The translations under genes were made by a program, and so were the position numbers. A DNA stretch of 64,000 bases from a virus (taxonomy: Duplodnaviria > Heunggongvirae > Uroviricota > Caudoviricetes): the IMG/VR virus record IMGVR_UViG_3300006033_000017, one strand, 5' to 3'. The notes under the pieces were generated by a model, which saw only the letters and a program-made list of their open reading frames with translations, searched no databases and was not told the DNA's origin. Shown here piece by piece: positions 4,154 to 64,000 of this stretch (its first letter is position 1; each line of letters starts with the position of its first letter).

Positions 4154-4683
4154 AACTCATACGGTTGATTCGACGTTTCAGGGATGAGCTTAACAAGCTC
4201 GGTCATAAAGGATTGCTCTTGCCGCAGAGTCTCTTGCAACGCTTTACCAAAAGCGTCATAGTAAAACATCACATCCAGCTCAGAATAAGCTCGCGTTGTA
4301 ACATCGGCGTATGCCAACTCCATTTTCCGCTTGGCTTCCTCAGTCTTAACATAAAAATCGCAATACCGCCAAACAGTACGCATCAATTCACTTACAAGAT
4401 CCTCTAGGCGCTCCCAGTTGCTGCACTTCTTGTCAACCACTGCCGACAATAGCTTGCTGGTGTTGTCGGCCCATTGGTTTTGAAGTTGGCGAAGGGTCGC
4501 CAGTTTACTAGCTAGATTATTCCATCGAAGCTTATTCTCGTCAGTGCTCTTACTGACAAAAAGAGCACCAGCCTCTGACAGATCGGTCTTAGCATCGTCA
4601 ATTCGCAGTCGGATCCCCGCCAAATACTTCATGTTACCAATGATACCGCAAATACAACCATATTGCATTCCAGTCTCCCTCAT
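4129..4683 (-). CDS. hypothetical protein (184 aa)
   Basis: ORF preceded on the minus strand by a TTGACA-N18-TACAAT promoter (plus coordinates 4689..4718). Confidence 0.5.
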   Translation of the reverse strand: MRETGMQYGCICGIIGNMKYLAGIRLRIDDAKTDLSEAGALFVSKSTDENKLRWNNLASKLATLRQLQNQWADNTSKLLSAVVDKKCSNWERLEDLVSELMRTVWRYCDFYVKTEEAKRKMELAYADVTTRAYSELDVMFYYDAFGKALQETLRQEQSFMTELVKLIPETSNQPYELCYKPETK

Positions 4684-4688
4684 CTCTT

Positions 4689-4718
4689 ATTGTATCATAG
4701 GTGGCAGGCGGATGTCAA
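4689..4718 (-). promoter_or_regulatory. sigma70-like promoter (TTGACA-N18-TACAAT) inside a GTCAAGC motif
   Basis: minus-strand reading gcTTGACAtccgcctgccacctatgaTACAAT, ~25 nt upstream of the ATG of the 4129..4683 gene. Confidence 0.5.
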
Positions 4719-4733
4719 GCTATACAATTGGCG

Positions 4734-4997
4734 CTATTGATCCCTATCGGGTAAAGGTTGGAATGTAAATGATGTTTGCACGGTTACTTTCACAATCTGA
4801 AAATTACCTAGAGTTTCCTCATATTCTAGTTTCAAATCACGAAGCTGCTGAGGATCGTATACCTTGTATGCCTCATCAACATCTTCTACTAGTTCACCAC
4901 TACTAACATTTTCTCGACTCGCATATCCAACACAAACACAAGAATCGCTCAAAACGTAAAAACATTCACGCGGCATCTTCTGTCTCCTTAATCTCAT
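4734..4997 (-). CDS. hypothetical protein (87 aa)
   Basis: ORF. Confidence 0.35.
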   Translation of the reverse strand: MRLRRQKMPRECFYVLSDSCVCVGYASRENVSSGELVEDVDEAYKVYDPQQLRDLKLEYEETLGNFQIVKVTVQTSFTFQPLPDRDQ

Positions 4998-5346
4998 ACT
5001 CAGCTAGACTATCAATGAACTTACAAGCATCTTCTATTATTGGGCCATACTTAACTACCCCAGAAACTTTCGACATAGCAATAGACTCTAGGAAACCTAC
5101 ATGAGTTAAGTATTCATCTTTATTCATGGCGGGGGTCTTAAGGATTACTGTGAGTACGGCACCATTCTCATTCAGATCATGGGTAATGGCCTCAACAATA
5201 TGGCTTCTATCGCGAATGATGATGGTATTACCAACTTCAGGCATTACATGATCATTGTCGAGATCCACAAACCAGCTAAGTAAAAGGGGAATAGAGTAGC
5301 CATTAATACGTACCCGTCCCGTGATACGCACAATTCTATTGCTCAT
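4966..5346 (-). CDS. hypothetical protein (126 aa)
   Basis: ORF. Confidence 0.4.
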   Translation of the reverse strand: MSNRIVRITGRVRINGYSIPLLLSWFVDLDNDHVMPEVGNTIIIRDRSHIVEAITHDLNENGAVLTVILKTPAMNKDEYLTHVGFLESIAMSKVSGVVKYGPIIEDACKFIDSLAEYEIKETEDAA

Positions 5347-20119: not shown

Positions 20120-20215
20120 AATGAATCATAATTCGTATCTCTTAGGGTGGCCCCCTACTATCCGGCAGGACATTATTGCAAATCCTATGAATTGGTAGAT
20201 TACCAGGAGATTACA

Positions 20216-20800
20216 ATGAACAAGACAGCCTCTTTCCCCGATAACACCCCATTACCAAGAGAACACATGCAAGCCTTAAATAAATCACATGGGCAAAGCC
20301 AATGGGTGCAAAGCGAAGCCCCGTTATGGGAAGTAGAGGCGCTGCCGGATGATGATCGTCATATCTTCCTAGAGCTACTTATGAAACAAATTGGTAAATG
20401 GACAGGAATGAAGCCTAGCGAATTGGATGCTACCGAGTTGTCTCTATTGGTCAATATGGATCTTCATGGAATGAATAAGTTGTATCTTCAATATATTACT
20501 ACTAAGCAGCATATTAAGGCTCAAAATGCACAACGCCTTATGAGTGCCATGGTAGATACTTTTAGAGAATTAGAAGCAAGTGGGTGGGGGTTCGGCGAAC
20601 CGATAGAGGAAGCCCCTGAATATAGCGAGCATGAGGAAACACCACAGGCGGCTTACCAGCAAGAGTTGCCGTTTGAGGACGAAGAGATAGTTGCGTCTAC
20701 CAAAGTTGAGCAATTACTAAGGGCCGCGACCTTAGCGGATCGTGAAGGTCTTTTCAAGGAAGCAGATATCATCCTACTAGCTGCTAACAGACTAATATAG
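20216..20800 (+). CDS. hypothetical protein (start at MNKTASF with AGGAG RBS)
   Basis: ORF; acidic. Confidence 0.45.
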   Translation: MNKTASFPDNTPLPREHMQALNKSHGQSQWVQSEAPLWEVEALPDDDRHIFLELLMKQIGKWTGMKPSELDATELSLLVNMDLHGMNKLYLQYITTKQHIKAQNAQRLMSAMVDTFRELEASGWGFGEPIEEAPEYSEHEETPQAAYQQELPFEDEEIVASTKVEQLLRAATLADREGLFKEADIILLAANRLI

Positions 20801-21182: not shown

Positions 21183-22022
21183 TTAGCGGCGCGAGCTACT
21201 AGACGAACTAGAACTGGATCGACTACTAGAGCTACTAAAGCTACTAGAGCTACCGAAACTTCCTGAAGAAGATCGCCCACTAGAGCTAAAGCCACTCGAT
21301 CCACCGAAACTACCACTACTGCGGCTAGGACTTGAGCCGCCAAAGCTACCACTACTCCGACTAGAGCTTGAGCCACTCCAACTACTACTTGGACGACTAG
21401 AGCTTGAGCCAAAAGACCCCTTGGAACTCGCTGCCGAACTTCCGCTATTGAAAGAGCCTCTCGACTTACTAAAAGATCCACCTGAAGTGGGCCTTGAGCC
21501 TGAGAAGCTACTACCAGTTCGTGCCTCGGGTACAGAAGGAACAGTCGTACTCTTTGATCCAAAAGAACCACTAGATGTACTAGGCGTACCGAAACTGCCC
21601 TTTGCCGGTGGGCGAGTGGTCCTTACTTCAGCAGCAGTAGCAGTACGAACAGCAGGCCGACTAGTTACCGCAACATATGGCTTACTATATCCCGGTGGGT
21701 TAGCATGATAGTAATACGAGTAATGCGACGTAGTATAGTAACGACCACGATAAGCACCACCGTAAGGATTAGCCATCCACCAAGAATAGGTCGGGAAGTA
21801 ATCATCATCGATAATCACAACCGGGGCCGGAGCAGCCGCCATGTATTCAGGTCCGACAGGTTGAACCGCCATTCCATTATGGCGACTGTGGATATCCCCC
21901 GCCACACCAACAACAATCGTACCAACAATTGCCAGCATCGCAATGACAACCAGCATCTCAATCAGGGTAAAGCCCTTCTTACGCATCTTCTGTTTCCTTT
22001 TCTTTGATTTCACCAAGTACAT
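21183..22022 (-). CDS. type IV prepilin-like protein with a Tyr-rich region and a long Ser/Gly/Arg-rich repetitive tail
   Basis: KKGFTLIEMLVVIAMLAIVGTIVVG matches the class III prepilin cleavage/methylation signal (G|FTLIE); then (SGSFGSSS)n low-complexity repeats. Confidence 0.6.
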   Translation of the reverse strand: MYLVKSKKRKQKMRKKGFTLIEMLVVIAMLAIVGTIVVGVAGDIHSRHNGMAVQPVGPEYMAAAPAPVVIIDDDYFPTYSWWMANPYGGAYRGRYYTTSHYSYYYHANPPGYSKPYVAVTSRPAVRTATAAEVRTTRPPAKGSFGTPSTSSGSFGSKSTTVPSVPEARTGSSFSGSRPTSGGSFSKSRGSFNSGSSAASSKGSFGSSSSRPSSSWSGSSSSRSSGSFGGSSPSRSSGSFGGSSGFSSSGRSSSGSFGSSSSFSSSSSRSSSSSSSSSRR

Positions 22023-34645: not shown

Positions 34646-35845
34646 CTAAGCATTTTGCAATGTCTCGAATATCCGCGAATCTATAGGTTTGAAACCGGCA
34701 CCGTAAGGTCCGGTAAGGAATCGATTCAAAATATTCTTACTCGCGTTTGTATCCGCATTGTCTCCATGACCACAACTGAGACACAAGAACACCTCTCCGT
34801 TTCGATTCCTCTTATCGACATGACCACATAGCGGACAGGTGATACTGGTATTATAACACGAAACGGTTCTGAAGGAAACACGGTTTTCTTCACACCCCAT
34901 TTGTACCCGGTCTAACCAATATCGCCATACCCAACTGCCGATAACTCGACGCATACTTTTAGAGAGGCGTCGTCTCTCCTTTGCCTTATGGTTCAGATTA
35001 GATAACTTCTCCACAACCACAAGATCAATACTTTTATTAGTTACGATCTGCCTCGTAACTTCGTCTATTCGTTGTTTCAAGGCCCTACGAGCTTTCTTTT
35101 GGCCTTTCGATCCCTGATTACAACGATTGACTCTGTTCACACAATCTTTAATATCTCTACCTAATTGCTCTCCAGTAGAGAATGAAGCCAAAGCATTAAT
35201 CCCAGAGTCTATACCGATAGCATTGAGCCCCGTTTTCTTTGGACCAGTTTCAATCTCGAAACAGAACTGAACACTATCTCTGGTGATAATGTAGCTATTC
35301 AGTCTTGTTCCCAATTGATTCCATTTGTTGAAATGCTTGTGTTTTTTAATCGGAAGATCCATCACAATCTTATTGCCAATTGAAGCTAGATGCAACCAAG
35401 AATCAAATTCTGATGCTGCCTTTGAAGCCACTAACTTAGCAATGTTACAATTGGCGCAAATTCTATCTCCTTTGTGTGTCGGCTTAACGGGCTTGATTGT
35501 TTCTGCTTTTTGTCTTAATTGATTGGCCTTAACTTCGTATTTAGCTCTTTCTGCTTTGGCTAATAATCGTTTTTTCTCATTTTTGGCTTTCTCTTGAGAA
35601 GAATTAATCAGATCAATAGCTTCTCTTGCACAGACCTTTCTCATTCTATGAGAAAACCAAGAATCAGGGAGGTTGATTATATCTTTGAGCAAGTCTGCTT
35701 TTGTCGGGCATTTATCTAGTGCCCAGAAAGAATCAATGAAGATATTGCAGAGTCTTCCGTATTCGATCAACACAATGCTAAGCTCCTCTCTCTTTTTTAA
35801 GGTCGAGAATTTAAGGGTACATTGTGTTGACCGAATGATTTTCAC
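34646..35845 (-). CDS. tnpB: TnpB (IS605 OrfB-family RuvC-like, putative RNA-guided nuclease)
   Basis: RuvC-I GIDSGINALA, RuvC-II VVVEKLSN, zinc finger CPLCGH...CLSCGH, RuvC-III DNADTNASKNI; N-terminus MKIIRSTQCTLKF is typical. Confidence 0.8.
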   Translation of the reverse strand: MKIIRSTQCTLKFSTLKKREELSIVLIEYGRLCNIFIDSFWALDKCPTKADLLKDIINLPDSWFSHRMRKVCAREAIDLINSSQEKAKNEKKRLLAKAERAKYEVKANQLRQKAETIKPVKPTHKGDRICANCNIAKLVASKAASEFDSWLHLASIGNKIVMDLPIKKHKHFNKWNQLGTRLNSYIITRDSVQFCFEIETGPKKTGLNAIGIDSGINALASFSTGEQLGRDIKDCVNRVNRCNQGSKGQKKARRALKQRIDEVTRQIVTNKSIDLVVVEKLSNLNHKAKERRRLSKSMRRVIGSWVWRYWLDRVQMGCEENRVSFRTVSCYNTSITCPLCGHVDKRNRNGEVFLCLSCGHGDNADTNASKNILNRFLTGPYGAGFKPIDSRIFETLQNA

Positions 35846-38238: not shown

Positions 38239-38742
38239 CTACCTGAAGAGTTTCTTAATCTTTCGAAGAAACTTCTTGGCCTCTTTTTGTACATTTGGTT
38301 CTGCCAAAGACAATAGAATTGACGAATTTGGGTCTCGTGTATATGTCTTATTTAATCTATTGTCTACAACATAACTCAAACAAATGTGATCCAATTTATT
38401 CAACGCAAAAATAGAATTAAGAACAGATATAGCAAAAGCATCAGCTTCATATTCATTTTGATAAAAAACTTCATCTCGATCAACATAACTGTGTCGAAAT
38501 AGAACATGCGCTATTTCATGAAGCAGAACATAGTAGTAGAGTAATGAGAATTTTGGCTTAACATAAATAGCAATATTCATGCCAAGACATGATCCCCAAT
38601 GTGCTGGCGAATCACCCTCATTGTGCTTAACGAGACGAATGTATCTCGCGGCACGAAGAAAAATACTATAGTAACGCGGCAATAGGATTCTTAAACTTAG
38701 ATACATCTTTGCTAGTTTGAATTTGTGTTTCAGAGACATCAA
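38239..38742 (-). CDS. ImmA/IrrE-family zinc metallopeptidase (M78)
   Basis: LHEIAHVLFRH (HExxH) plus downstream EYEADAFAISVL matches the M78 E-x-EA-x-FA-x-LL signature. Confidence 0.6.
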   Translation of the reverse strand: MMSLKHKFKLAKMYLSLRILLPRYYSIFLRAARYIRLVKHNEGDSPAHWGSCLGMNIAIYVKPKFSLLYYYVLLHEIAHVLFRHSYVDRDEVFYQNEYEADAFAISVLNSIFALNKLDHICLSYVVDNRLNKTYTRDPNSSILLSLAEPNVQKEAKKFLRKIKKLFR

Positions 38743-38753
38743 TTTGACCTTTA

Positions 38754-39350
38754 TTGAGAGTAATGATTGACCTCGCTGCCCTTACAACGATAAACCATCA
38801 GACTAACCCCATTATAGCACGACCGCAGCCGTTTGTTAAATCGCTTGACAACCCAATCACCCCATGGTATAATGATGATATGAAACCCATAAATCCAGTA
38901 TATGCGGCTCGTTTCGATGAAGCCAAATACTTACTAGAAAAACATCACGACCTATTTAGCGCTATTGTCTCTATTTCTGATAGAGAAGATGAGTTAATGC
39001 CACAAGCATTAACCCAAGACACCTATTGTCTGCGTCTAATCTTCACTGATACTGATGGTCGTCAACCTGACATAGCTATGTCTCTAGAACAAGCACAAGC
39101 TCTATATGATGCACTACCGACTATCACACAAGGAACAGGCACAATCCTGGTTCATTGCTCCGCAGGCTTGTGTCGCTCACCTGCGATTGCATATGTGATT
39201 ATGGCGTACCAATTCGGCCCCGGCAATGAAGCTCAAGCATACGCAGAGCTTTCTAAATTGAATCCTGTGATGCTACCTAACCAATGGGTGCTTAGTCAGT
39301 GCGAGAAGGTGATGCCGGGTTTTAAGTTACTACCAATTCTTAACAAATAA
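38754..39350 (+). CDS. Cys-based protein phosphatase (tyrosine/dual-specificity type)
   Basis: HCSAGLCRS = CX5R(S/T) P-loop. Confidence 0.6.
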   Translation: MRVMIDLAALTTINHQTNPIIARPQPFVKSLDNPITPWYNDDMKPINPVYAARFDEAKYLLEKHHDLFSAIVSISDREDELMPQALTQDTYCLRLIFTDTDGRQPDIAMSLEQAQALYDALPTITQGTGTILVHCSAGLCRSPAIAYVIMAYQFGPGNEAQAYAELSKLNPVMLPNQWVLSQCEKVMPGFKLLPILNK

Positions 39351-40522: not shown

Positions 40523-40718
40523 TGACTAGGCTCTCCTCTCGAATCATCCCAATGTAGTCATACTCATCCGCCAACAAAACAGTGATGTCTTCGTGCAAAC
40601 GATCTAGACAATGCCAAGTGTCTTCATCTAAGCAACTTTCCATTCTTTCCCCGAATAGTTCAGTGAAAGCCCTATAGCACCTATCTAGTGTTGCTTTGTA
40701 GACATCTAACTGTTTCAT
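40470..40718 (-). CDS. hypothetical protein (82 aa)
   Basis: ORF. Confidence 0.35.
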   Translation of the reverse strand: MKQLDVYKATLDRCYRAFTELFGERMESCLDEDTWHCLDRLHEDITVLLADEYDYIGMIREESLVNEKGQPQHFQTITQITI

Positions 40719-41278
40719 GGTACATCCCCTGTCAGAATATACCTTGTAGCCAAAGCCATCGCATGTGGTAACGCATCCGTATTAGTCACAGTTTGTACAG
40801 ACAAAGATAGATTTTGCCTACAAGGATACCTATGGCATGTTTCTTTCTCCCAGTATTCAATCTCCTCTGTCCATATGCGATATGTAACAAATCTATCTAT
40901 ATCATCTCCAAGCGAAAACCATATAATCTGACCATCAGAGAATTTTCGAGACACTATTACTGCATTGTTGTAAACCTTCCAGCCCCCCAAATTCAATATA
41001 CCATAGAGTCTTCGATGAGCCACTAATTCATCAAATATTCTATTAACTGTATCTTGGACAACTAACGAAGTGTGGCATTGGTTGTGAGCTACAAAATCAA
41101 AGATCCTATTCTTACACTGTTCCATTTCTTGAATTTGATCCTTAAACCAACGTAGTATCGGGGAGAAAGATATCAACTCTATAAGTTGCTTATTGGTGTA
41201 ACCAAAGTCATAAAGGGTATTATTCTTATTCGCCATATTTGTTGGGCGCGGGATAATATGCGCACTACATTGACTCAT
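40715..41278 (-). CDS. GDDI-motif family protein, paralog 2
   Basis: IWFSLGDDIDRFVTYR. Confidence 0.5.
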   Translation of the reverse strand: MSQCSAHIIPRPTNMANKNNTLYDFGYTNKQLIELISFSPILRWFKDQIQEMEQCKNRIFDFVAHNQCHTSLVVQDTVNRIFDELVAHRRLYGILNLGGWKVYNNAVIVSRKFSDGQIIWFSLGDDIDRFVTYRIWTEEIEYWEKETCHRYPCRQNLSLSVQTVTNTDALPHAMALATRYILTGDVP

Positions 41279-41810
41279 AAATCACCTTTTCACCAAGTGA
41301 AACATAGTTTCTGGCAACCCTATGTGCGGCGCGCATATCACTAACACATATGGGTTCTGGATCCCCATGCAGATCTCTACTCTCTCCCTGTTTCTCGAAG
41401 AGCTTCGCATACCAACGAAGCTCTTCATTAGGTCCCGATATATTGCCTGCCAATGCAAGTCTAGGGATATCGTCACCTATAGGGAAGAATAGTCGCAAAT
41501 TCCCACTCTCACCTAAAAGGCACAATTGGCCCAGCCACACCCCATGAATCAATTCAACATTGGCGCTATACGTATGCAACCGGCGCACCTGATCCAAATG
41601 CTTATAGACAATTGCCATCGCATCAGCTACAACATCACCAAAGTAATTGAACATGCTATGCATTCTACGCTCGCACTCATAAAGCTCAATATGCTTGCTT
41701 CTCAAATAGGATCTGCCGGGAATATTGCCATCTAGTAATGATGAAAATTCAGTGTTAGTAATACCAAAGTCTGCTAAATGACTTTCGAGTTGGTTCCTAT
41801 AGATTTCCAT
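41265..41810 (-). CDS. GDDI-motif family protein, paralog 3
   Basis: LFFPIGDDIPRLALAG. Confidence 0.5.
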   Translation of the reverse strand: MEIYRNQLESHLADFGITNTEFSSLLDGNIPGRSYLRSKHIELYECERRMHSMFNYFGDVVADAMAIVYKHLDQVRRLHTYSANVELIHGVWLGQLCLLGESGNLRLFFPIGDDIPRLALAGNISGPNEELRWYAKLFEKQGESRDLHGDPEPICVSDMRAAHRVARNYVSLGEKVIYESM

Positions 41811-41821
41811 GTTATCTCCAG

Positions 41822-42520
41822 CTACACATTATAGAATGGCGGATGAAGTCCATCTGAATCATACTGATCCGAAGTATGTTGGTCCGCATTCCATACCTTA
41901 ACACCCGCGATGATATATCGAATAATGCGTTCCTGCCATATATGATCAGAAATTGGCATAGAGCTAACCAGTAAATTCTCTTTGCAGGGGTACTTTTTGC
42001 TACTTTGCTGTCGCCAGAATTGAAGCTCTTTAGGGGCGCGGACAGCAAAACGGCCTATGTCATCACCTAAGGCATAGTATAAACCTGAACCATCAATCCA
42101 ATCTACCTTGTCACGGTCATAGATATCAAATACTGGCTTGCAATTAACAATAACTACCGCATTATAATTCTCTACGGCAAAGTTGGTGCAAATGTAGTAA
42201 ATCCGTTTTAGTAGGGTGATTTGTGCCGCAATTCTATTCTGCGCATTCAGTAACTTAACTCTCGCGTTAGTGTCGCTTGGCATAACCTTTGACATAATCT
42301 TGATCATGCGAGATTGTATAGTGGTCGCCTCTATCAACAACGCCCTAGCCCTCTCGGGATTTTCGACATCCCCGAGACAATAGAACTCGAAGATTCTATT
42401 GGCTAGATTGTTGGTAATCTCTAGATTCTCAAAGTAAACTATCGGTGTAATTGCTCGCCCCATATTGGTTTCGCTATTATAGGTTGGAACACTCATTTCG
42501 ACTCCTTCAGGAACAGGCAA
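41822..42520 (-). CDS. GDDI-motif family protein, paralog 4
   Basis: LYYALGDDIGRFAVRA. Confidence 0.5.
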   Translation of the reverse strand: MPVPEGVEMSVPTYNSETNMGRAITPIVYFENLEITNNLANRIFEFYCLGDVENPERARALLIEATTIQSRMIKIMSKVMPSDTNARVKLLNAQNRIAAQITLLKRIYYICTNFAVENYNAVVIVNCKPVFDIYDRDKVDWIDGSGLYYALGDDIGRFAVRAPKELQFWRQQSSKKYPCKENLLVSSMPISDHIWQERIIRYIIAGVKVWNADQHTSDQYDSDGLHPPFYNV

Positions 42521-43239
42521 TACTTCTTCTGAATGGTCTTTATCTCAAGATCCTTGATTACACCTTTTTGGATATAGTTCACAATACACGAAAATGCACC
42601 CTTGTCGCTAGAATAGTGATGCTCGATCATTCTTAAAGCATCGTTTAGCGCAATACCCGGATTATCCTTGGCAGCGGCTTTCAGTAGCTCCACAGTGTTT
42701 CTAAATTTCGAGAATCGCGCACCACCTGATGAGCCTGCATCCTTAAAGGTCTTCTGCCCCTCAAGCAGCGATTGTTTTATCCTCTTGCTATTTACACGCC
42801 TATGCAGAGCAGGCAGCGGAAGCTGCGTTACTGTCCCATCTAAGCATTCTTCATCATAGCTGCTTTTAGCGGTGGGCCGCACAGAAAAACAACCTATACC
42901 TTTGCTGCTTAAGACCGAGTTGATGAAGCTAATCTCACGATAATCCTTCTTGGGAGTTGGTATTGCTATAGATACCCTATGAGCATAAGGTAGCCATTGA
43001 TTAGCCTGAGCAAGTAATTGAAAGCTGAGTGTCCTTTTGCATTCAATTACCCAGATCACCCCATCCCTAACCGCAACGATATCAGCTACGACTTCGGAAC
43101 CAAGATGCGGCAAGAAGACAGGAACTTCCTGATATACATCCCAGTTCTCATTAGTGAGTTCATCCACAACAGGTCTAGCGACGTGGCGCTCACTACTAGG
43201 CCAAGATGATTTAGGTAGTTTCTCCCGTGTCTTTCTCAT
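42493..43239 (-). CDS. PD-(D/E)xK restriction-endonuclease-fold protein
   Basis: VADIVAVRDGVIWVIECK fits a D...(D/E)xK nuclease core. Confidence 0.4.
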   Translation of the reverse strand: MRKTREKLPKSSWPSSERHVARPVVDELTNENWDVYQEVPVFLPHLGSEVVADIVAVRDGVIWVIECKRTLSFQLLAQANQWLPYAHRVSIAIPTPKKDYREISFINSVLSSKGIGCFSVRPTAKSSYDEECLDGTVTQLPLPALHRRVNSKRIKQSLLEGQKTFKDAGSSGGARFSKFRNTVELLKAAAKDNPGIALNDALRMIEHHYSSDKGAFSCIVNYIQKGVIKDLEIKTIQKKYCLFLKESK

Positions 43240-46504: not shown

Positions 46505-46533
46505 ATTATAGCACACCGGACGCGAATCGTCAA
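46505..46533 (-). promoter_or_regulatory. sigma70-like promoter TTGACG-N17-TgcTATAAT
   Basis: minus-strand read upstream of the metallophosphoesterase gene. Confidence 0.5.
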
Positions 46534-46549: not shown

Positions 46550-47746
46550 ATGAGCAATATTGAAGAGCTATTAGCACAGCAAAGAAAACTAGATCGCCAA
46601 GGTCGTTTTGAAGAAGCGGATCAACTATTCAAGACCTGTGGTGCATTTGATAGTTTTTCCAATGCCGGACTCGGAGCAATAGAAAGTCACGGTCAAGAGG
46701 GCGACGGTAAAAGTGAAATTCGGCTGGAATTGGGTGAAAGCAAATTAAGACCATCAAGTTGGTTTCGACAGCTAAAGAGTGTTGTGGTTCCTATGCCTGT
46801 TCAATATGTACAAAGATACCACGCAATGCCCAATCTTGTCATTCCTATGAAAGTTGCTGTTCAGATACCATCTTTGAAGGCAATACTAAGAAGTCCTAGT
46901 ACCTACTCAGCAGAAGGTAACACTGACGAAGATCAACATCGTCTCAATATACTCCGTAATCGGGACACGATTACTGCGTATATAACCGCGAATATCCCCG
47001 AAGCTGCAAGACAAGCACTCAAGAAAAGCCTTCTGCTTCAACCATTGACACCACAAGAAGAAGCGGCGATAGGCACTATTACACCGCAACAGTTATCAAG
47101 AATTGGTGAGCTTGTACAAGGATTACAAACCCCTCTTACGCCAATGAGACGTGGTGATTCTATCACCAATGAAGGAGCAGTAATTAGGCGAAACCGCATA
47201 GGTGGAATGGCGAAGGAAATAAGCCTACCCTATGAGTTATGTGCCAGCAACTCGGATAAAAGAAAAGGCAACCTAAGCGCTATTTACGACAAAGCGGCAG
47301 GTGGCGGACAAGTTGTTGAGTTGATGCTACACACATTACACTCAGCCACTGGTATAACACCAGAGGATGAAACCAATAGCAACGTTATTGGTGATACGGC
47401 TTTTGAGCAAAATCAACCGGCATCTACTGCTATTCCTGCCGCAGCGCCGCAGAAACAATCCTGGATTGAGCGCATAACCCAAAGACTCAATAATGCGACA
47501 AGAGAGAATATACTCTCTGATCTTCCCAATCTAACTCCCGAGCAACAAGCGCGCATACAAGAACTATCACGAGCGCTCAATAATGCTCATAGGAATCTTA
47601 CAGATAAAGAAAACAAGTTAGCAACGGGACGCACCAATGGTACGATTACGACTGAACGCGAAGCTAATCTCTTAGAACAAATTGGTTACTATCAGAACCT
47701 GATAGCACAAATCACTCATGACATCCGAATGGTACAATATAGCTAG
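46550..47746 (+). CDS. hypothetical protein (398 aa) with the N-terminal 'LDRQGRFEEAD' leader shared by two downstream genes
   Basis: N-terminus LLAQQRKLDRQGRFEEADQLF. Confidence 0.5.
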   Translation: MSNIEELLAQQRKLDRQGRFEEADQLFKTCGAFDSFSNAGLGAIESHGQEGDGKSEIRLELGESKLRPSSWFRQLKSVVVPMPVQYVQRYHAMPNLVIPMKVAVQIPSLKAILRSPSTYSAEGNTDEDQHRLNILRNRDTITAYITANIPEAARQALKKSLLLQPLTPQEEAAIGTITPQQLSRIGELVQGLQTPLTPMRRGDSITNEGAVIRRNRIGGMAKEISLPYELCASNSDKRKGNLSAIYDKAAGGGQVVELMLHTLHSATGITPEDETNSNVIGDTAFEQNQPASTAIPAAAPQKQSWIERITQRLNNATRENILSDLPNLTPEQQARIQELSRALNNAHRNLTDKENKLATGRTNGTITTEREANLLEQIGYYQNLIAQITHDIRMVQYS

Positions 47747-48069
47747 TCTACTAGCTCACCAACATCAAAACCACACTTTTGCCAAATTCGATGTAAACGC
47801 TGCCAAGTGAATCTCTTGTCACCTACTGACAAGCGCAAGCGATCCGCCGATTCGGGGATCTTCTTAACAATCTTGTAGAGAGAACCTTTTTGGGCCTTCG
47901 CTATCTCTAGAACCATCTCAATTAGGCGTTCATCTGTCTTAGGTGGCTCTTTCCCATCCAATGGCAAATAGATGGTTTGGTCTGTATCAACGTCTACCAC
48001 CCTTAGTAGGTATTCCTGTTTATTAGGATTCCGAGTATCAACACAAAATAGGGGATCTATGTATACCAT
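47743..48069 (-). CDS. hypothetical protein (108 aa)
   Basis: ORF. Confidence 0.4.
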   Translation of the reverse strand: MVYIDPLFCVDTRNPNKQEYLLRVVDVDTDQTIYLPLDGKEPPKTDERLIEMVLEIAKAQKGSLYKIVKKIPESADRLRLSVGDKRFTWQRLHRIWQKCGFDVGELVD

Positions 48070-48091
48070 AATAGCTAGAGGCTCCTTCGAC

Positions 48092-48364
48092 CTATTGCGA
48101 ATGCTTAAGGATTAAGATGTGGAGTGTTACACTCATAACGAAGAAACACCACCAAGGCAACGGTGGTAATCCTAACGTTGTAGATAGTAGGTTCCATAGA
48201 TAGCTAAGAATAAAAGCAACTAAGACATGAAGCAGCAATACGATCCCCCAATAAGCAAGTTCCTCTTCTGGGGAACGACTTACTGTAATACCGTAGTCAT
48301 CAGTTAAATCATGCGAACTATCCATCACAAATAGTTCAAGCATCTGGTCCATGGGTGTCCTCAC
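48092..48364 (-). CDS. small membrane protein (90 aa, 2 TM)
   Basis: hydrophobic segments; upstream TTGTTG-N17-TATAAT. Confidence 0.4.
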   Translation of the reverse strand: MRTPMDQMLELFVMDSSHDLTDDYGITVSRSPEEELAYWGIVLLLHVLVAFILSYLWNLLSTTLGLPPLPWWCFFVMSVTLHILILKHSQ

Positions 48365-48403
48365 TACTTATTATAGCGCCTTGCTCACGTTTCAACAAGG
48401 TGA

Positions 48404-49207
48404 CTAGACCGATTCCTCGGGGTTAGGGACGGCGGATAATTGCGACTTCAAGCCTTCTAGTTTCTTTTGCACCTGATCCTTGATGCCTTTTTCGGGGGTG
48501 CTAAGCCAGGGGCCTATTTCATCAGGAATCTGCTCAGGAGTATATCCACTAGCCAACATATCTTGCTTCCACTCACCTAGATATTGGTTAGCTAGTGCCT
48601 GAGGGATCATATCGGCAGTTTGTTGCTCCCCCTCACTATACCAAGATTGCGCCAACTTATTCCTATCTTCTGGGGATAGATTTTGATTAACTAGGTTAAC
48701 CATTTCCTGACGCAATTGGTCTTCCGAAACTGGGGGTTTGTTGTGGGCGGCTTCATGCTCGGCAGATGCCCTATCTTTGTAAATATCTCTTGTCCACTCG
48801 GGTTTCTGTAGTAATTCATAAATTTGATCAGCAGAAAGGTTTTGGCCCTTATGTTGATCAACTACATATTTTGTATATGTTACTAAGTGTTGAAGCTGAT
48901 ATGCTAAGGCGGACATTAACCTAGATTCGTCGGCACCTAACATCACTGCTTGTATGATATTTAAGGGATTAAGGCTCGGGCTGACTTCATCGATGGGTTT
49001 CCATTGAACGGTATAATGAAGCCCTTCGACATTAGAGGGATTGGCTTCGCCAAGGTTCTTAGCAACCTCTTGGACTTCGCTACCGGATAATTGCTCAGAG
49101 ACATCTTGTGCAAGTCTCAAAAAGACCCTATCAGCAGCCTCAAAGTCGCCAATTCGATCATAATGTCGTGCTTGTGCGAATAGATCTCTCACGTTTCCTA
49201 CCCCCAT
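48404..49207 (-). CDS. hypothetical protein (267 aa) with the shared N-terminal leader (HYDRIGDFEAADRVF)
   Basis: paralogous N-terminus. Confidence 0.5.
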   Translation of the reverse strand: MGVGNVRDLFAQARHYDRIGDFEAADRVFLRLAQDVSEQLSGSEVQEVAKNLGEANPSNVEGLHYTVQWKPIDEVSPSLNPLNIIQAVMLGADESRLMSALAYQLQHLVTYTKYVVDQHKGQNLSADQIYELLQKPEWTRDIYKDRASAEHEAAHNKPPVSEDQLRQEMVNLVNQNLSPEDRNKLAQSWYSEGEQQTADMIPQALANQYLGEWKQDMLASGYTPEQIPDEIGPWLSTPEKGIKDQVQKKLEGLKSQLSAVPNPEESV

Positions 49208-49833
49208 CGACCTTCTTGTACACCATTCTGTATGTCTTGTGCGGTTGCTACTAATTGCTGAGCCACTTCATCTCTATTGAGGCGAACTAGAATGTGTAGC
49301 ACTGCCTTCAATAGATGAATGTCCGCGACATGATATGGGGCAGTTCTGCCAAATAGAACATCGGACAATTTATCCAAGAGTTCTTGGTCGTCTTGATCGT
49401 GCCCTAATTCAGTTTTAATAGGGATCGAAACACCATCACTAGCGACAGCCCCCACTTCTTCATGAAGAGTGTTGGCTATATCACCTACTGATCCACCCCA
49501 ACTCTTGGCGATATGTTCAGCAGCGCGTCTAATAATGCGAAGACCACTAAGAATGACCTTACCGTCTTCCAAAACCAAGTATTTCTGAGCCAGATTGAAT
49601 GCTTCAGGATTTTCATCACAATACTCAAAATACTCATCCAGGAAAGAATCTTTAGCGGGCTCTTCGACTACTTCGTCCTCGTGCTCCGAAGGATCATAGT
49701 TAAAAGGATGATCAAATGGCTTAGAAAGGGGGCGAGGTTCATAGGCTTCTTGCGCAGCTAAGACAAAAAGCTTATCGGCTTCCTCAAATCGACCCTGTTG
49801 ATCCAAATACTGTGCTTGCTCTATCTTGTCCAT
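49198..49833 (-). CDS. hypothetical protein (211 aa) with the shared N-terminal leader (LDQQGRFEEADKLF)
   Basis: paralogous N-terminus. Confidence 0.5.
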   Translation of the reverse strand: MDKIEQAQYLDQQGRFEEADKLFVLAAQEAYEPRPLSKPFDHPFNYDPSEHEDEVVEEPAKDSFLDEYFEYCDENPEAFNLAQKYLVLEDGKVILSGLRIIRRAAEHIAKSWGGSVGDIANTLHEEVGAVASDGVSIPIKTELGHDQDDQELLDKLSDVLFGRTAPYHVADIHLLKAVLHILVRLNRDEVAQQLVATAQDIQNGVQEGRWG

Positions 49834-49898: not shown

Positions 49899-49945
49899 TC
49901 TATACAATACAAGCACGGCGATCTACCTCTCGTAGATCGCCGTGC
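49899..49945 (-). terminator. rho-independent terminator (minus strand)
   Basis: GCACGGCGATCTAC-gagag-GTAGATCGCCGTGC perfect 14-bp stem, followed on the minus strand by TTGTATTGTAT. Confidence 0.6.
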
Positions 49946-49962
49946 TCTGCGATGAGTGCTTA

Positions 49963-50169
49963 TTACCCTGGGGTATGACACTTCACAGTGACATCTTCAC
50001 CATCAATGGTCTTCCATCCAGGTTCTCTAACATTGGTCATGGGCGATTTAACACCATCATCCTGACAACTAGCCCACTCATAAAGACACTGTTCCCCATG
50101 ACCTTCAAACCAATCCGCAAACATTTCAGCTTGCGCCAAGGTCAAATTATCGAAAATTACTCGTGCCAT
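49963..50169 (-). CDS. hypothetical protein (68 aa)
   Basis: ORF. Confidence 0.35.
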   Translation of the reverse strand: MARVIFDNLTLAQAEMFADWFEGHGEQCLYEWASCQDDGVKSPMTNVREPGWKTIDGEDVTVKCHTPG

Positions 50170-51273: not shown

Positions 51274-51689
51274 CTCGTAATTGGCCCACCACGCATGGGT
51301 TTATTGAATAAATCAAGTAGCCATGAGCATTTATAGGTATTGTTAGCTTGGCAAATGACTCGTTCCGCAAAATACCAAGACCATAGCTCTAGGTCGTAAT
51401 ATGCCGTTCCGCCATTAGGATGAAGGCAAATACCGATATCTGGCTGCGTAAATATCTTGCATTTGATACAATTTACGGTATCATCTTCATTCACTTTTAA
51501 CTCAACATCCACACAACAGTACCGTTCTTGAAGTAGCAGGCCACCATCTTTAATGCCCTGATTGATTTCGAATAGAATTTTGCAATTCGACCCAAAGTGA
51601 GCGTTACCATTAAGAAAGGTAGCCACTTCAGCGGCGATAACTCTTGCCTTCTTTAATCTTGCTTCATAATCTACCATATCAGTCACCAT
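51270..51689 (-). CDS. hypothetical Cys-rich protein (139 aa)
   Basis: ORF. Confidence 0.4.
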   Translation of the reverse strand: MVTDMVDYEARLKKARVIAAEVATFLNGNAHFGSNCKILFEINQGIKDGGLLLQERYCCVDVELKVNEDDTVNCIKCKIFTQPDIGICLHPNGGTAYYDLELWSWYFAERVICQANNTYKCSWLLDLFNKPMRGGPITS

Positions 51690-52248
51690 ATAGATTGTTA
51701 TCTAAAATATAGTGCATAAGCTCAGGACATTCATGATACATCAAGGCTGCCTTGAGTCTATCATTCTCTAGGGGTGGAATCTCAGTCTTAAACTGTTCTC
51801 TAATCCATGTACTATGCTCACCAATATCGGGCACGGAGAAGATATTCACGGAAGCACACAATCGCTCCGCACGAAACCAGTGTTGTAGATTAAACAATGT
51901 ATCAGAACCAATAATTAGAACTAGATTATCCCTACTAAGATTCTCATGGATGTGATAGTGTTGCACCAAGTCATAGGTGTTCTGAATATCAAAATCCCTC
52001 TCCACACTATTAACAAAAGCCCGAGCATGACAACATTTGTGTAAGAGATTAGTCATATGAAATCGGTGTTCATATGACACATTAGAGGTTTTCAATGGTT
52101 GCCTATTTGTTGGCGTAATACCAATCGAAAAATCACTGGAACGCTTACCATAGCCATTAAATGCAGCAGCAGCAGTATGTAATGCTCTAAGATGACCAAG
52201 ATGTGGTGGGTCAAACATTCCGCCATAAAGCCCAAAACTAACCATCAC
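51679..52248 (-). CDS. nicotinate/nicotinamide mononucleotide adenylyltransferase-like (NadD/NMNAT family)
   Basis: GGMFDPPHLGH (GxFxPxHxGH) and C-terminal HSTWIRE (SxTxxR) motifs. Confidence 0.6.
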   Translation of the reverse strand: MMVSFGLYGGMFDPPHLGHLRALHTAAAAFNGYGKRSSDFSIGITPTNRQPLKTSNVSYEHRFHMTNLLHKCCHARAFVNSVERDFDIQNTYDLVQHYHIHENLSRDNLVLIIGSDTLFNLQHWFRAERLCASVNIFSVPDIGEHSTWIREQFKTEIPPLENDRLKAALMYHECPELMHYILDNNLYGD

Positions 52249-52310: not shown

Positions 52311-53213
52311 CTACTGCGTAGGTGCCGGCATCTGAATCATAGGTGTTGCACCACCTACGACCATTGGTTGCTTGCCGTCCCACTTCTCAATAGCAGCCTT
52401 CTGATTCTGAATGCGCTGCCAGTCCACCATGATAGAAGTCAGGCTATTAGTCAACAGAGCGTTAGCCTTCGCCTGACCCTCAGCTTTAACGCGCGCAGAT
52501 TCCGCCTCACCGCGAGCCGACTCAATTTGCTGAGTTGCTACAGCCTTAGTCTCACGGATCTTATTCTCTGCGGCAACAGCCTTGTTGGTCGCGGTAATTG
52601 CGGCAACAATTGACTCCGAAACCTGAGAATCTAGGCGCAGGTCAGAAACAAAACTCACCATGTTAACCTGGAAGCCATCCGCACCTAGACGAGTACTTAG
52701 ATCGTCAGTTACCTGCTTCAGTAGCTCGGCTTTACCTTCACCATAGATCTTTACAATCGGCATCTTCGATGCATGACGACTCAGAGAATCGCGAACCTGA
52801 GAACGCAGATAAACATTCGAGATACCAGTGATATCCTGACGGAACTTCTTGAGGATCGACGGCACCTTGGCTGAATCCAAAGTAAAGGCCAGGGAAACAT
52901 CAACACGGACCAATGCACCCTCAACAGAGTTGAAAGCCATACTCTCATCAACGGGCGCACCTTCATGGGCACTTGCGGTCCAGTTGATCGTCTTCATAAA
53001 GGTCGGGTAACGATAAAGAATGGTAGTCAAAGGATTGTAGAATACGCGACCAGTAACAACTGGCATGTTATTCACACCCTTATTCCCGCCATACATATTG
53101 ACCTTAACGCCAACCCACCCCGGCTCAATCACCGAGGAGCAGAAAAGCAACACACCCAGAGGCATCAACAGAATCACCACTAGTGCGGCGATGATACCAA
53201 TTCGCTTTGTCAT
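52311..53213 (-). CDS. SPFH/band-7 (stomatin/prohibitin/HflKC-like) membrane protein
   Basis: N-terminal TM helix; SPFH-like core; Ala/Glu/Gln-rich coiled coil (AESARVKAEGQAKA). Confidence 0.65.
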   Translation of the reverse strand: MTKRIGIIAALVVILLMPLGVLLFCSSVIEPGWVGVKVNMYGGNKGVNNMPVVTGRVFYNPLTTILYRYPTFMKTINWTASAHEGAPVDESMAFNSVEGALVRVDVSLAFTLDSAKVPSILKKFRQDITGISNVYLRSQVRDSLSRHASKMPIVKIYGEGKAELLKQVTDDLSTRLGADGFQVNMVSFVSDLRLDSQVSESIVAAITATNKAVAAENKIRETKAVATQQIESARGEAESARVKAEGQAKANALLTNSLTSIMVDWQRIQNQKAAIEKWDGKQPMVVGGATPMIQMPAPTQ

Positions 53214-60503: not shown

Positions 60504-60745
60504 CCTACCTCAAGTAGAGCCATTTGATCTTTTACGCGAGAAGCCCAATCATTTTCCAAAGCTGCAATTACCTGTTCAGGCTTACCACCCAATACCTCCT
60601 TACATCCTCGGGCTCTCCCTCGCCAACCACCACTCTGATATACTAAGCCATCAATTTCGTTGCAAGAATAGTAATAGTTATGCCAATCGTCTTCTTCGCT
60701 ATTGTCGCCCTCCCGCCAAAGGAAGCGTCCCTGGATATCAGCCAT
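60491..60745 (-). CDS. hypothetical protein (84 aa)
   Basis: ORF. Confidence 0.3.
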   Translation of the reverse strand: MADIQGRFLWREGDNSEEDDWHNYYYSCNEIDGLVYQSGGWRGRARGCKEVLGGKPEQVIAALENDWASRVKDQMALLEVGWVS

Positions 60746-61076
60746 TTTGTAATACCTCTAACTCATTCTGTAACCTGCGAACCTTCGCAATGAGTTCGGG
60801 CATAGCTACTTTAGCGGTAGCGATGAATTCTGCATTGCGACGACGACGTTCATTACTAGCTCGAACTATAGTTTCGTCATTGAGTTCATGAAGATCTTCG
60901 GGATGACAAATATAGTGAGGAGCAACGCCGAGATGATCCCAGAATTCTGCTAGTCTAGATTCGTCAGCCCTGCTTTGGACGCAAACAGTGCCTGACTGAT
61001 AAATCTCTACCACCCAGGGACCGGGTGTTGTGTCATTGCAAATAGTCTCTAGTTCTTCTAGTCGTTTAGCTTCCAT
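60738..61076 (-). CDS. hypothetical protein, 'TPGPW...PELI..RRLQ' family (paralog A)
   Basis: LEELETICNDTTPGPW ... AMPELIAKVRRLQ. Confidence 0.4.
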   Translation of the reverse strand: MEAKRLEELETICNDTTPGPWVVEIYQSGTVCVQSRADESRLAEFWDHLGVAPHYICHPEDLHELNDETIVRASNERRRRNAEFIATAKVAMPELIAKVRRLQNELEVLQNG

Positions 61077-61461
61077 GTAACAACTTATCCGTTTCTACAA
61101 TCATAGCTTGCCCAAGATAGAGCTTCTGAAGACGACGTATCTCTTTGATTAGCTCAGGGACAGCAGTTCTGGCTGCCGAGATGAATTTAGCATCGTTCTC
61201 GGCTTGGAGTGTCGCCGCTCCTTGTTGTTGCTCGAATCTCTCCCACTCATCGTCATCATAAGAAGTTAGATAATCAGCATTGTTGAAGCTTGGACCAATA
61301 GAAGCGACACACATTGAATCGCCTAATTCGCCCCAGCCAACTGTAGCAGGCGCACCGCCTTCACCCCATCTATCAAGAACCCAAGGATCAGGTGTAGCCT
61401 TATTGCATAACTCTTCTAGTTCAGCTAATCTATCAGCTAATATCATAGCTTCTCCAATCAA
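61066..61461 (-). CDS. hypothetical protein, same family (paralog B)
   Basis: LAELEELCNKATPDPW ... AVPELIKEIRRLQ. Confidence 0.4.
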   Translation of the reverse strand: MIGEAMILADRLAELEELCNKATPDPWVLDRWGEGGAPATVGWGELGDSMCVASIGPSFNNADYLTSYDDDEWERFEQQQGAATLQAENDAKFISAARTAVPELIKEIRRLQKLYLGQAMIVETDKLLHGS

Positions 61462-61880
61462 GGATATATGATAATGTCCCTAACGATGTCTTGTTCGTCT
61501 AGCATTATGGTGGCGGCATTATAACGCCCATCGCACCAATGCCCCTGCATAGGTTTGTAGATCCTAATATTGGTGACACCGATACCTCCTACCAATACGC
61601 CCCACAACGCCGTCGATAATGGCTTACCTAAGTGTTCTTTTGCGCTAAAACTCATGCAACCGCGTACTGTCAACTTAATTCGCTCATGATTATTGCCCAT
61701 GAACCGTTCCCACTGAGGATTAGCTATGGTTGTCTCGTATTCCTCAAAAGCCAAACGAGTTTCTTCGGGCATACCTTCCTTGCCACCATAAATCGCCCAA
61801 CCTAACTTGAGATCTTTAGGGTCGTCAGCAGGTAGTGTAGTCGTAGTGATTTCCATTATGGTTTCTCGAATCTTTCCCAT
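61458..61880 (-). CDS. hypothetical protein (140 aa)
   Basis: ORF. Confidence 0.4.
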   Translation of the reverse strand: MGKIRETIMEITTTTLPADDPKDLKLGWAIYGGKEGMPEETRLAFEEYETTIANPQWERFMGNNHERIKLTVRGCMSFSAKEHLGKPLSTALWGVLVGGIGVTNIRIYKPMQGHWCDGRYNAATIMLDEQDIVRDIIIYP

Positions 61881-62667: not shown

Positions 62668-63477
62668 TTATTCCCCCAAGATATACTCTAGCATTGGCTT
62701 GTATTGGTCAAACGTCTCTTGCCCCCAGTTAGTAACCAATTCATGACGGCGATTCTGCCACGTAGCCAAAACCGACTGATAGTGAATGATCGCTGCTTCA
62801 TCATTATAGCCCTGCGCAGGTCGCCAATTATAAGAATCGGGCAAATGAGCCAAGTCATTACTAAAGACATCTGTTAAAGTAGCTTCTTCAAGCAGACCCA
62901 ATAGTCTAGAGTCGTTAAACCAATCTCTATGACTCATCACATTAGTAACATATTGAAACTCAGCACGAAGGTAATCGATTAATGCGAACCTCTTCTTGTA
63001 CATTAAGCGAGTATCTAAAACGAACACACCCGCATTAATCCCGCGCCCCTTTGTACCAAACTGCCCCGTAAAACTAGCACCAAAGGGTAAAAGATTCCTG
63101 AGATCGCGCCACTGAAACTTAGGCGTAAAGATGGTATCAACATCACAAAATAGAATTTCCTGATTAGGAAAGATATCGTGTAATTCCATCTTCAAATATA
63201 TCGAAGGAATCTTTAAGAAATATGCAACGTATTGATTCTCAATTGACTTATTGAGGATGAAGTCAATAATGCCTGAGAAATCAAATTCAGCATTAAGCTG
63301 TGAGTAGATCTGGCTGGGATGGTGAATACACTCCACACCCTCGACTACTAAAGGCTCCGTACTGACCACGGTAATATCATCAATATCGACGGCACGAGCG
63401 CTTATGATAGAGTGAGTTAAGGCTTTGAGGTACAAAGGTGCTTTATCCGTACCACTAATGACATATACTAGTTTCAT
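62668..63477 (-). CDS. GT8-like nucleotide-sugar glycosyltransferase
   Basis: DxD motif LFCDVDTIF; GINAGVFVLD; IIHYQSV region. Confidence 0.5.
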   Translation of the reverse strand: MKLVYVISGTDKAPLYLKALTHSIISARAVDIDDITVVSTEPLVVEGVECIHHPSQIYSQLNAEFDFSGIIDFILNKSIENQYVAYFLKIPSIYLKMELHDIFPNQEILFCDVDTIFTPKFQWRDLRNLLPFGASFTGQFGTKGRGINAGVFVLDTRLMYKKRFALIDYLRAEFQYVTNVMSHRDWFNDSRLLGLLEEATLTDVFSNDLAHLPDSYNWRPAQGYNDEAAIIHYQSVLATWQNRRHELVTNWGQETFDQYKPMLEYILGE

Positions 63478-63484
63478 GTGGATC

Positions 63485-64000
63485 CTACATTCTCATCTTA
63501 ATGAGGTGGCTTTTTCTTGTTTTTCGTGGAGTTACACACAAAATATCATCAAAAATTGGTTCGTAATAACTAAAGACTTCTTTTCCCCATTCTTTTCTGA
63601 GCTTTTCTCTCGAATCAAGGCACCCCCAACTAGATATAACTGACTGATAGTGTATAATTGCTGCCTTGGGATTTATACCAAAAGAAGGTCGCCACATATA
63701 TGTATCTGGTAGCTGTCCCATATTGGTACGAAAAACAGTACTTAAGGGTTTTTCTTCCAATAAATCCAACATGTGTTGTTCTTCTGGTAAAGAATTACCA
63801 TCCAGTATACTTTGAACATAGTCAAAAGCTTTCAATACAATAGTTTTGATTTCATGATATTTTCCGGCTAGAGCCTTGGTCTCTAATACAAAATTCCCAG
63901 CACTAAGAATATAGCTAATCTTATGACGGTAATCAGTAAAAGTCCCAAGAAACGGCTGAGGATTTGCAAGATCATTCCAATCGAAATTAGATGTAAATAT
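63485..64000 (-). CDS. second GT8-like glycosyltransferase paralog, 5'-partial (runs off the window end)
   Basis: the reading frame is open upstream of the track's Met to the window edge; ILSAGNFVLETKAL and PDTYMWRP...AAIIHYQSV parallel the previous gene. Confidence 0.45.
   Translation of the reverse strand: MFTSNFDWNDLANPQPFLGTFTDYRHKISYILSAGNFVLETKALAGKYHEIKTIVLKAFDYVQSILDGNSLPEEQHMLDLLEEKPLSTVFRTNMGQLPDTYMWRPSFGINPKAAIIHYQSVISSWGCLDSREKLRKEWGKEVFSYYEPIFDDILCVTPRKTRKSHLIKMRM

Follow-up and report, generated by a model that had tools for sequence, protein, structure and literature searches.

Why should proteins that have nothing else in common carry the same stretch of some 30 residues at one end? 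The question is raised by a 64,000-nucleotide (nt) stretch of DNA, here called the window, from IMG/VR virus record IMGVR_UViG_3300006033_000017 (Caudoviricetes), in which three open reading frames (ORFs) between positions 46,550 and 49,833 had been predicted, on reading the DNA, to share an N-terminal leader that targets or packages their products. The three ORFs, designated A, B and C, were confirmed in position and strand, and the N-terminal peptides quoted for them are correct. The count of three did not hold, however, because a fourth ORF, D (20216-20800, plus strand), carries the motif as well; and while the motif is N-terminal in A, B and C, it forms the extreme C terminus of D. The shared sequence is best described as a solitary antiparallel helical hairpin of ~30-34 residues that resembles a single unit of the tetratricopeptide repeat (TPR). 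Its carriers are four otherwise unrelated ORFans without known function, encoded by one uncultivated phage of ~157 kb.

Four carriers of one terminal motif

The carriers and their hairpins are as follows (aa, amino acids; pI, isoelectric point).

46550-47746, plus strand: protein A, 398 aa, pI 6.7 (near neutral)
46550-46648, plus strand: hairpin of A, residues 1-33, core DRQGRFEEAD at 46592-46621
48404-49207, minus strand: protein B, 267 aa, pI 4.7
49103-49201, minus strand: hairpin of B, residues 3-35, core DRIGDFEAAD at 49130-49159
49198-49833, minus strand: protein C, 211 aa, pI 4.5
49747-49833, minus strand: hairpin of C, residues 1-29, core DQQGRFEEAD at 49774-49803; a Pro/acidic linker comes next
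20216-20800, plus strand: protein D, 194 aa with the ATG at 20216 as start (217 aa with the GTG at 20147), pI 4.7
20696-20797, plus strand: hairpin of D, extreme C terminus, core DREGLFKEAD at 20738-20767, preceded by an acidic Pro-containing linker

Pairwise BLASTP similarity among A, B and C is confined to their first ~20-31 residues (A/B, E=3.6e-5; A/C, E=1.8e-5; B/C, E=4.5e-5). Outside the motif, the remaining 180-370 residues of these proteins showed no significant similarity to each other in BLASTP, in agreement with the claim that they are unrelated beyond the leader. The copy in D, which ends in STKVEQLLRAATLADREGLFKEADIILLAANRLI followed directly by the stop codon, was found by a six-frame regular-expression scan; the gene lies 26 kb from the A/B/C locus, and its public gene call (194 aa, ATG at 20216) agrees with the ORF read here. 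All four copies can be aligned without gaps over 29-33 residues, and each carrier, D included, contains one significant stretch of the motif profile. Because the copy in D is C-terminal, the function of the motif cannot depend on an N-terminal position.

The four copies were combined into a profile, which gives 54-69 bits on the carriers and no more than 4.8 bits on any of the remaining 1358 segments of the six-frame translation of the window. The core of the motif, D-x2-G-x-F-x2-A-D, occurs four times in the window, as compared with a mean of 0.017 in 300 shuffled sequences and 0.012 predicted from composition, and is thus ~240-fold above chance. The bodies of A-D gave nothing significant in scans against Pfam, PHROGs and NCBIfam; a weak LTXXQ match in A (E=0.62) and a weak ECF-sigma match (E=0.07) were disregarded.

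TPR register, predicted fold and selection

Read in the TPR register, G15, F17 and A20 are invariant in all four copies and position 24 is hydrophobic (F/L). Position 8 is small in three of the four copies, as is position 27, and positions 4/5 and 11 are hydrophobic in three to four copies. Two sites do not fit: position 7 is Q/Q/Q/A instead of Leu, and position 32 lacks Pro. In addition, Asp is invariant at positions 12 and 21. The latter position is usually hydrophobic in TPRs and packs on the next repeat; an invariant Asp at this site fits a repeat without a neighbour and an exposed functional face. These peculiarities, which the four copies share, show that they are of common origin and not independent TPR look-alikes.

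The sole Pfam matches of the carriers, whether whole proteins or isolated peptides were scanned, are TPR_7 and TPR_2, and all of them are below the gathering score: TPR_7 in B (E=0.0014-0.013; 19.0 bits), TPR_7 in A (E=0.12; 13.0 bits) and TPR_2 in C (E=0.045; 14.3 bits), with gathering cut-offs of 27-27.9 bits. D has no Pfam TPR match, and in the bodies of the carriers the Pfam scan found no further TPR match that could form a tandem array. As the gathering score is not reached and a tandem array is absent, we do not file the module as a bona fide TPR repeat. It shares with TPR families (the Pfam TPR clan, TPR_7 PF13176, TPR_2 PF07719, TPR_10/12) the length, the topology of helix A, turn and helix B, and the register, but differs from them in that one unit is present per protein, at a chain terminus and on a linker that we read as flexible.

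When 1.84 billion representative proteins were searched exhaustively with the motif profile (HMMER, E<=0.001), 18 matches were returned, which comprise the four phage proteins and 14 others with 3-10 matched stretches each. Ten of these 14 were scanned, and all are canonical TPR_10, TPR_12 or TPR_1 arrays on NB-ARC, CHAT, HET and similar domains. Two more (P0007 and P0014), whose sequences were read, are short peptide-repeat proteins and not TPR arrays. Besides A-D, no single-copy carrier of the motif was found among the 1.84e9 proteins. In the JGI metagenome contigs one match was confirmed by tblastn, the TPR-like segment AQRLDRQGRFEAA of a 613-residue bacterial SGNH/TPR protein; this protein has further TPR-like repeats, and we consider the match a generic TPR resemblance.

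These searches bear on the possibility that four TPR-like or amphipathic helices arose independently and are alike by chance or convergence. The sequence G-x-F-E-E-A is a very common TPR turn, and the fact that the profile also matches unrelated TPR arrays and the SGNH/TPR protein is what such an origin would predict. However, four copies in 64 kb, where ~0.02 are expected, effectively refute it on statistical grounds, and the gap between the scores of the carriers and the next segment of the window, the lack of other single-copy carriers and the invariant D12 and D21, which are outside the TPR consensus, all speak against it. A fortuitous likeness is therefore very improbable.

The predicted fold is consistent with the register. 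AlphaFold2 models C with a helix at residues 3-12, a turn and a second helix at residues 16-30, with a pLDDT of 74-83 there and below 50 elsewhere in the protein. In D, an unstructured region (residues 122-157) is followed by a helix at 158-176, a turn and a helix at 180-193 (pLDDT ~50-56). Thus, a two-helix antiparallel hairpin is predicted in both proteins, confidently in C and weakly in D. The hairpin is net neutral and has conserved acidic residues. In all four proteins it is separated from the body by a linker of 28-36 residues, of which 5-12 are acidic and 7-13 are Pro, Gly, Ser or Asn. The models of C and D show no regular secondary structure in this linker, which is probably flexible.

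The identity of third codon positions between the copies is only 0.24-0.45, and identical residues are often encoded by different codons. This divergence indicates that the copies are old and that the constraint acts on the protein and not on the DNA or RNA. A second strain (L003, JGI 3300014204; and L004) has 88% DNA identity to the window across the A/B/C locus. Between B and its orthologue in L003 we counted 62 synonymous and 10 non-synonymous codon changes, of which 4 synonymous and no non-synonymous ones fall into the hairpin; the hairpin of A is kept with a single replacement, Q25R. The ORFs are thus real genes under purifying selection. In A, a linker rich in Gly and Ser follows the hairpin; the middle of the body beyond it (aa ~106-200) varies between the strains, and the C terminus is helical and conserved. 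The middle third (residues ~106-200, window positions 46865-47150) is almost unalignable with the corresponding region of L003 (1875-3071), although the strains are otherwise 88-94% identical at the DNA level and the flanks of A, namely the N-terminal 100 and the C-terminal ~200 residues, are conserved. The segment is hypervariable or mosaic, and may be a target-binding region shaped by an arms race or a product of recombination.

The same comparisons nearly dispose of the idea that the peptide likeness is a by-product of an element at the nucleotide level, for instance a translational operator, a structure in the 5' part of the mRNA or a recombination sequence. Three copies are located exactly at the 5' ends of genes, and the first 32 codons of A have no synonymous change between the strains, as such an element would demand. 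Yet third codon positions are near random between the copies, the hairpin of B does gather synonymous changes, D carries its copy at the 3' end of the gene, and an upstream element common to A, C and D was searched for and none was found; A and D have only a ribosome-binding site in common, which in A is an AGGAG preceding the ATG. We regard a nucleotide-level origin as hardly credible.

The conservation in related genomes that had been expected of the leader was found in a single close strain, where A and B retain the motif; more distant homologues were absent from all collections searched. No DNA match to the window was detected in 50,697 INPHARED phage records, nor did A have a tblastn match in these records. 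A and B have no relatives in IMG/VR, C has no homologue except itself among 5.8e9 proteins, and the 90% protein clusters contain strain variants of B only. As for the motif itself, a word-indexed search of the 5.8-billion-protein index returned nothing, and there was no confirmed match in IMG/VR or in 185,579 species genomes (one per species). Four distant phage fragments of ~54 kb (L010-L013), which were reached via an SPFH gene of the window, lack the motif even at E<=5. When the PDB sequences were searched with the profile, only an irrelevant match (E=0.89) came up, and the sole relevant match of a literature search for the motif string was a plant TPR paper. Since the proteins of the contig were part of the exhaustively searched library, the remaining 93 kb probably contain no further copy above ~35 bits. 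As far as these searches show, the use of a single TPR-like unit to tag a terminus of four unrelated ORFans in the same phage has not been described.

Candidate functions of the hairpin

What might such a module do? The motif is present in four copies with a TPR-like register, is under selection at the protein level, is predicted to form an autonomous hairpin and is joined to the body by linkers of similar composition; from this we infer binding to a partner, and to one that the four proteins share. The idea of a conserved tag on divergent proteins hence stands in a modified form, as selection, the predicted hairpin and the linker indicate a terminal module that probably mediates a shared interaction. 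The reading we prefer, and to which we give an even chance, is a position-independent protein-protein docking hairpin, by which four different proteins would gather at a single partner or associate with one another. According to this model, intragenomic domain shuffling would have placed the hairpin on a terminus of each of four unrelated ORFans, where it is tethered to the body by the acidic stretch of 28-36 residues rich in Pro, Gly, Ser and Asn. The exposed face with D12, G15, F17, A20 and D21 (TPR numbering), together with an acidic patch, would bind one common partner encoded by the phage or the host. Alternatively, the hairpins might stack on one another. In either case, four different proteins would end up in the same complex or place. 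If this is true, four ORFans of a poorly sampled large phage would join one functional group, and the hairpin would offer an experimental handle for finding what A-D act on. It would also be an example of a single TPR unit that serves as a portable, terminus-independent tag and not as a part of an array, which may be of some interest for protein design and for loading cargo into phage particles.

Several points weigh against this docking model. The AlphaFold2 predictions were run on single sequences without alignments, and the model of D is of low confidence. Homologues of the carriers are confined to two closely related strains, so that the conservation is shallow, and as there are none beyond this phage lineage, the function stays inferred. 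Moreover, isolated single TPR units are generally unstable on their own, and the hairpin might thus pack on its own body instead of a partner. As it stands, the motif is a well-supported sequence observation with a deduced function in one phage lineage.

The last of these points leads to a different explanation, in which the hairpin is a shuffled structural element without a shared partner. It would be a stable helical cap, or an element for intramolecular packing or homo-oligomerisation, that was copied by illegitimate recombination and kept for the folding or self-association of each protein. A lone TPR unit usually requires neighbours for folding, so that the hairpin could plausibly pack on the body of its own protein or dimerise with itself into a four-helix bundle. 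Largely helical bodies are predicted for A-D, and tandem paralogues in the window (see below) show that this genome duplicates sequence readily. Tight intramolecular packing is difficult to reconcile, however, with the 28-36 residues between hairpin and body, which are unstructured in the models of C and D. In addition, D12 and D21 are not structurally required in TPRs, and their invariance points to a shared surface function. On balance, a purely structural role is unlikely, albeit far from negligible.

A special case of the docking model, with the procapsid as partner, is a virion-packaging or capsid-targeting tag. Here, the hairpin would dock A-D to the scaffold or the inner capsid, and the proteins would be encapsidated and perhaps ejected, possibly with the tag being cleaved off. 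Conceptually, the module appears closest to terminal cargo tags of this kind (the T4 capsid targeting sequence, the P22 scaffold hairpin and encapsulin loading peptides), with which it has no sequence in common. Encapsulin cargo-loading peptides are extended segments of ~10 residues that sit at the N or C terminus of diverse cargo proteins, behind a flexible linker, and direct them into a shell of the HK97 fold. The motif likewise is a conserved tag at either terminus of diverse proteins behind a linker, but it is a helical hairpin and not an extended peptide. In phage T4, the capsid targeting sequence is short (~10 residues), strictly N-terminal and removed by the prohead protease. This sequence is the only shared part of the T4 internal proteins, which set a precedent for conserved tags on diverse cargo (PMC3012670). 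T4 and the phage studied here thus have in common that a conserved terminal tag alone unites diverse, fast-evolving phage proteins, and the strain-variable middle of A is as expected of an arms-race effector. However, the module is three times longer than the T4 sequence, with ~30 residues, is predicted to be folded and TPR-like, and in D is located at the C terminus, which rules out a strictly N-terminal leader of the T4 type.

The hairpin of the P22 scaffolding protein binds coat through basic residues. This ~30-residue C-terminal helix-turn-helix (residues 271-300) is responsible for coat binding and demonstrates that a terminal helical hairpin can be a capsid-docking device (PMC9965877); it also works when fused to foreign cargo (PMC9965877; PMC9962691). 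The module of A-D is likewise predicted to be a U-shaped helical hairpin of ~30 residues, and it too sits at a chain terminus. In contrast to that of P22, the hairpin of A-D is net neutral with conserved acidic residues, and the PDB search with its profile revealed no sequence similarity between the two. Furthermore, it occurs on four carriers of which none is scaffolding-like, three of the four hairpins are N-terminal, and no capsid genes are nearby; the module is thus not of the P22 type. The prohead protease motif of giant phages, [A/S/G]-x-E (PMC10052503), is found a short way past the hairpin of A (AIE), of B (GSE) and of C (AQE, AYE), as would suit a cleavable tag. Yet such tripeptides, and those of the form [L/I]-x-E, are no more frequent near the hairpins than expected by chance in Glu-rich linkers. 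The strong acidity of B, C and D (pI 4.5-4.7) would be unfavourable for packaging together with DNA, and among the genes of the window we recognised none for a capsid, scaffold, portal or prohead protease; the neighbours of the carriers are non-structural. The proposal of a cleavable N-terminal targeting or packaging signal is weakened by the C-terminal copy in D, the ~30-residue TPR-like fold in place of a short peptide, and the non-structural neighbours, and a packaging tag in the wider sense is improbable.

Little credence, finally, can be given to a bolder extension of the docking model. The solitary TPR-derived unit might be an address tag for either terminus and a new kind of phage sorting signal, which would send fast-evolving ORFan effectors to the procapsid interior, a compartment built by the phage or a hub protein of the host. 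Alternatively, the four hairpins might come together in trans as a split TPR solenoid and so nucleate a hetero-tetramer.

Gene arrangement and neighbouring genes

The end of C and the start of B overlap by 10 nt, as expected for partners that are produced together, and A is convergent with the C-B unit at a distance of 0.7 kb from it. Three further features belong to this arrangement.

48092-48364, minus strand: orf86/90, downstream of B, with two hydrophobic, apparently membrane-spanning segments
47743-48069, minus strand: orf108, 108 residues, whose stop overlaps the stop of the convergent A by 4 nt
49911-49947, minus strand: perfect 16-bp stem with a 5-nt loop, in the 129-nt gap between the ORF at 49963-50169 and C

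Both orf86/90 and orf108 are nearly invariant between the strains. The stem-loop resembles a terminator, although it has no T-run. A transcription unit C-B-orf86-orf108 probably begins at this point, and the stem-loop may be a signal for RNA processing or termination. An inverted-repeat scan of the window, which did not itself list the hairpin at 49911-49947, found no similar hairpin elsewhere. A near-consensus extended -10 promoter of the sigma-70 type (TTGACG-17-TG-TATAAT, 11 of 12 positions) is present at 46505-46533 on the minus strand, just upstream of a metallophosphoesterase gene and within the 56-62-nt gap that separates this gene from the divergent A.

According to its coordinates, the window corresponds, in reverse complement, to the first 64 kb of a metagenomic contig of 157,149 bp (ERZ27247451:k141_1195142). 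Its recognisable genes code for a DNA methyltransferase, an amidohydrolase, a thymidylate-kinase-like protein, an HNH endonuclease, an amidase endolysin, a TnpB-like transposase, the metallophosphoesterase, a NadD-like nucleotidyltransferase, an SPFH protein and AAA ATPases. The window looks like the non-structural part of a large phage genome. The SPFH/Band-7 protein (52311-53213, minus strand) has its closest homologues, with 56-58% identity, on contigs of Armatimonadetes metagenome-assembled genomes (L006, L007), where they occur in an ordinary chromosomal context beside CbiMQ/ABC and cytochrome bc genes. This similarity may point to the phylum of the host or to the origin of the gene. The SPFH gene is adjoined by the NadD-like gene of the cytidylyltransferase family (51679-52248, minus strand), and this small gene pair is conserved in the distant phage-like fragment L010, where the NadD-like gene is at 4590-5105.

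Other features of the window concern single genes. Adjoining D, an ORF on the minus strand (21183-22022) encodes a 279-aa protein with a type IV pilin-like prepilin N terminus (KGFTLIEMLVVIAMLAIVG) and a very long Ser/Gly-rich tail of low complexity. The TnpB-like gene (34646-35845, minus strand) codes for a TnpB/Cas12f1-like (OrfB_IS605) nuclease, with matches to Pfam Cas12f1-like_TNB (E=3e-12) and to phrog_506 (transposase). In the public precomputed annotation, a 166-aa ORF (38239-38742, minus strand) has a weak match to Peptidase_U49 (Lit-like protease), and its neighbour (38754-39350, plus strand) weakly matches a dual-specificity phosphatase. Three pairs of adjacent or nearly adjacent paralogous ORFs, all on the minus strand, are located at 40718-42544, 60741-61479 and 62671-64000 (25-38% identity, E from 1e-11 to 1e-33), which shows that local gene duplication is common in this genome.

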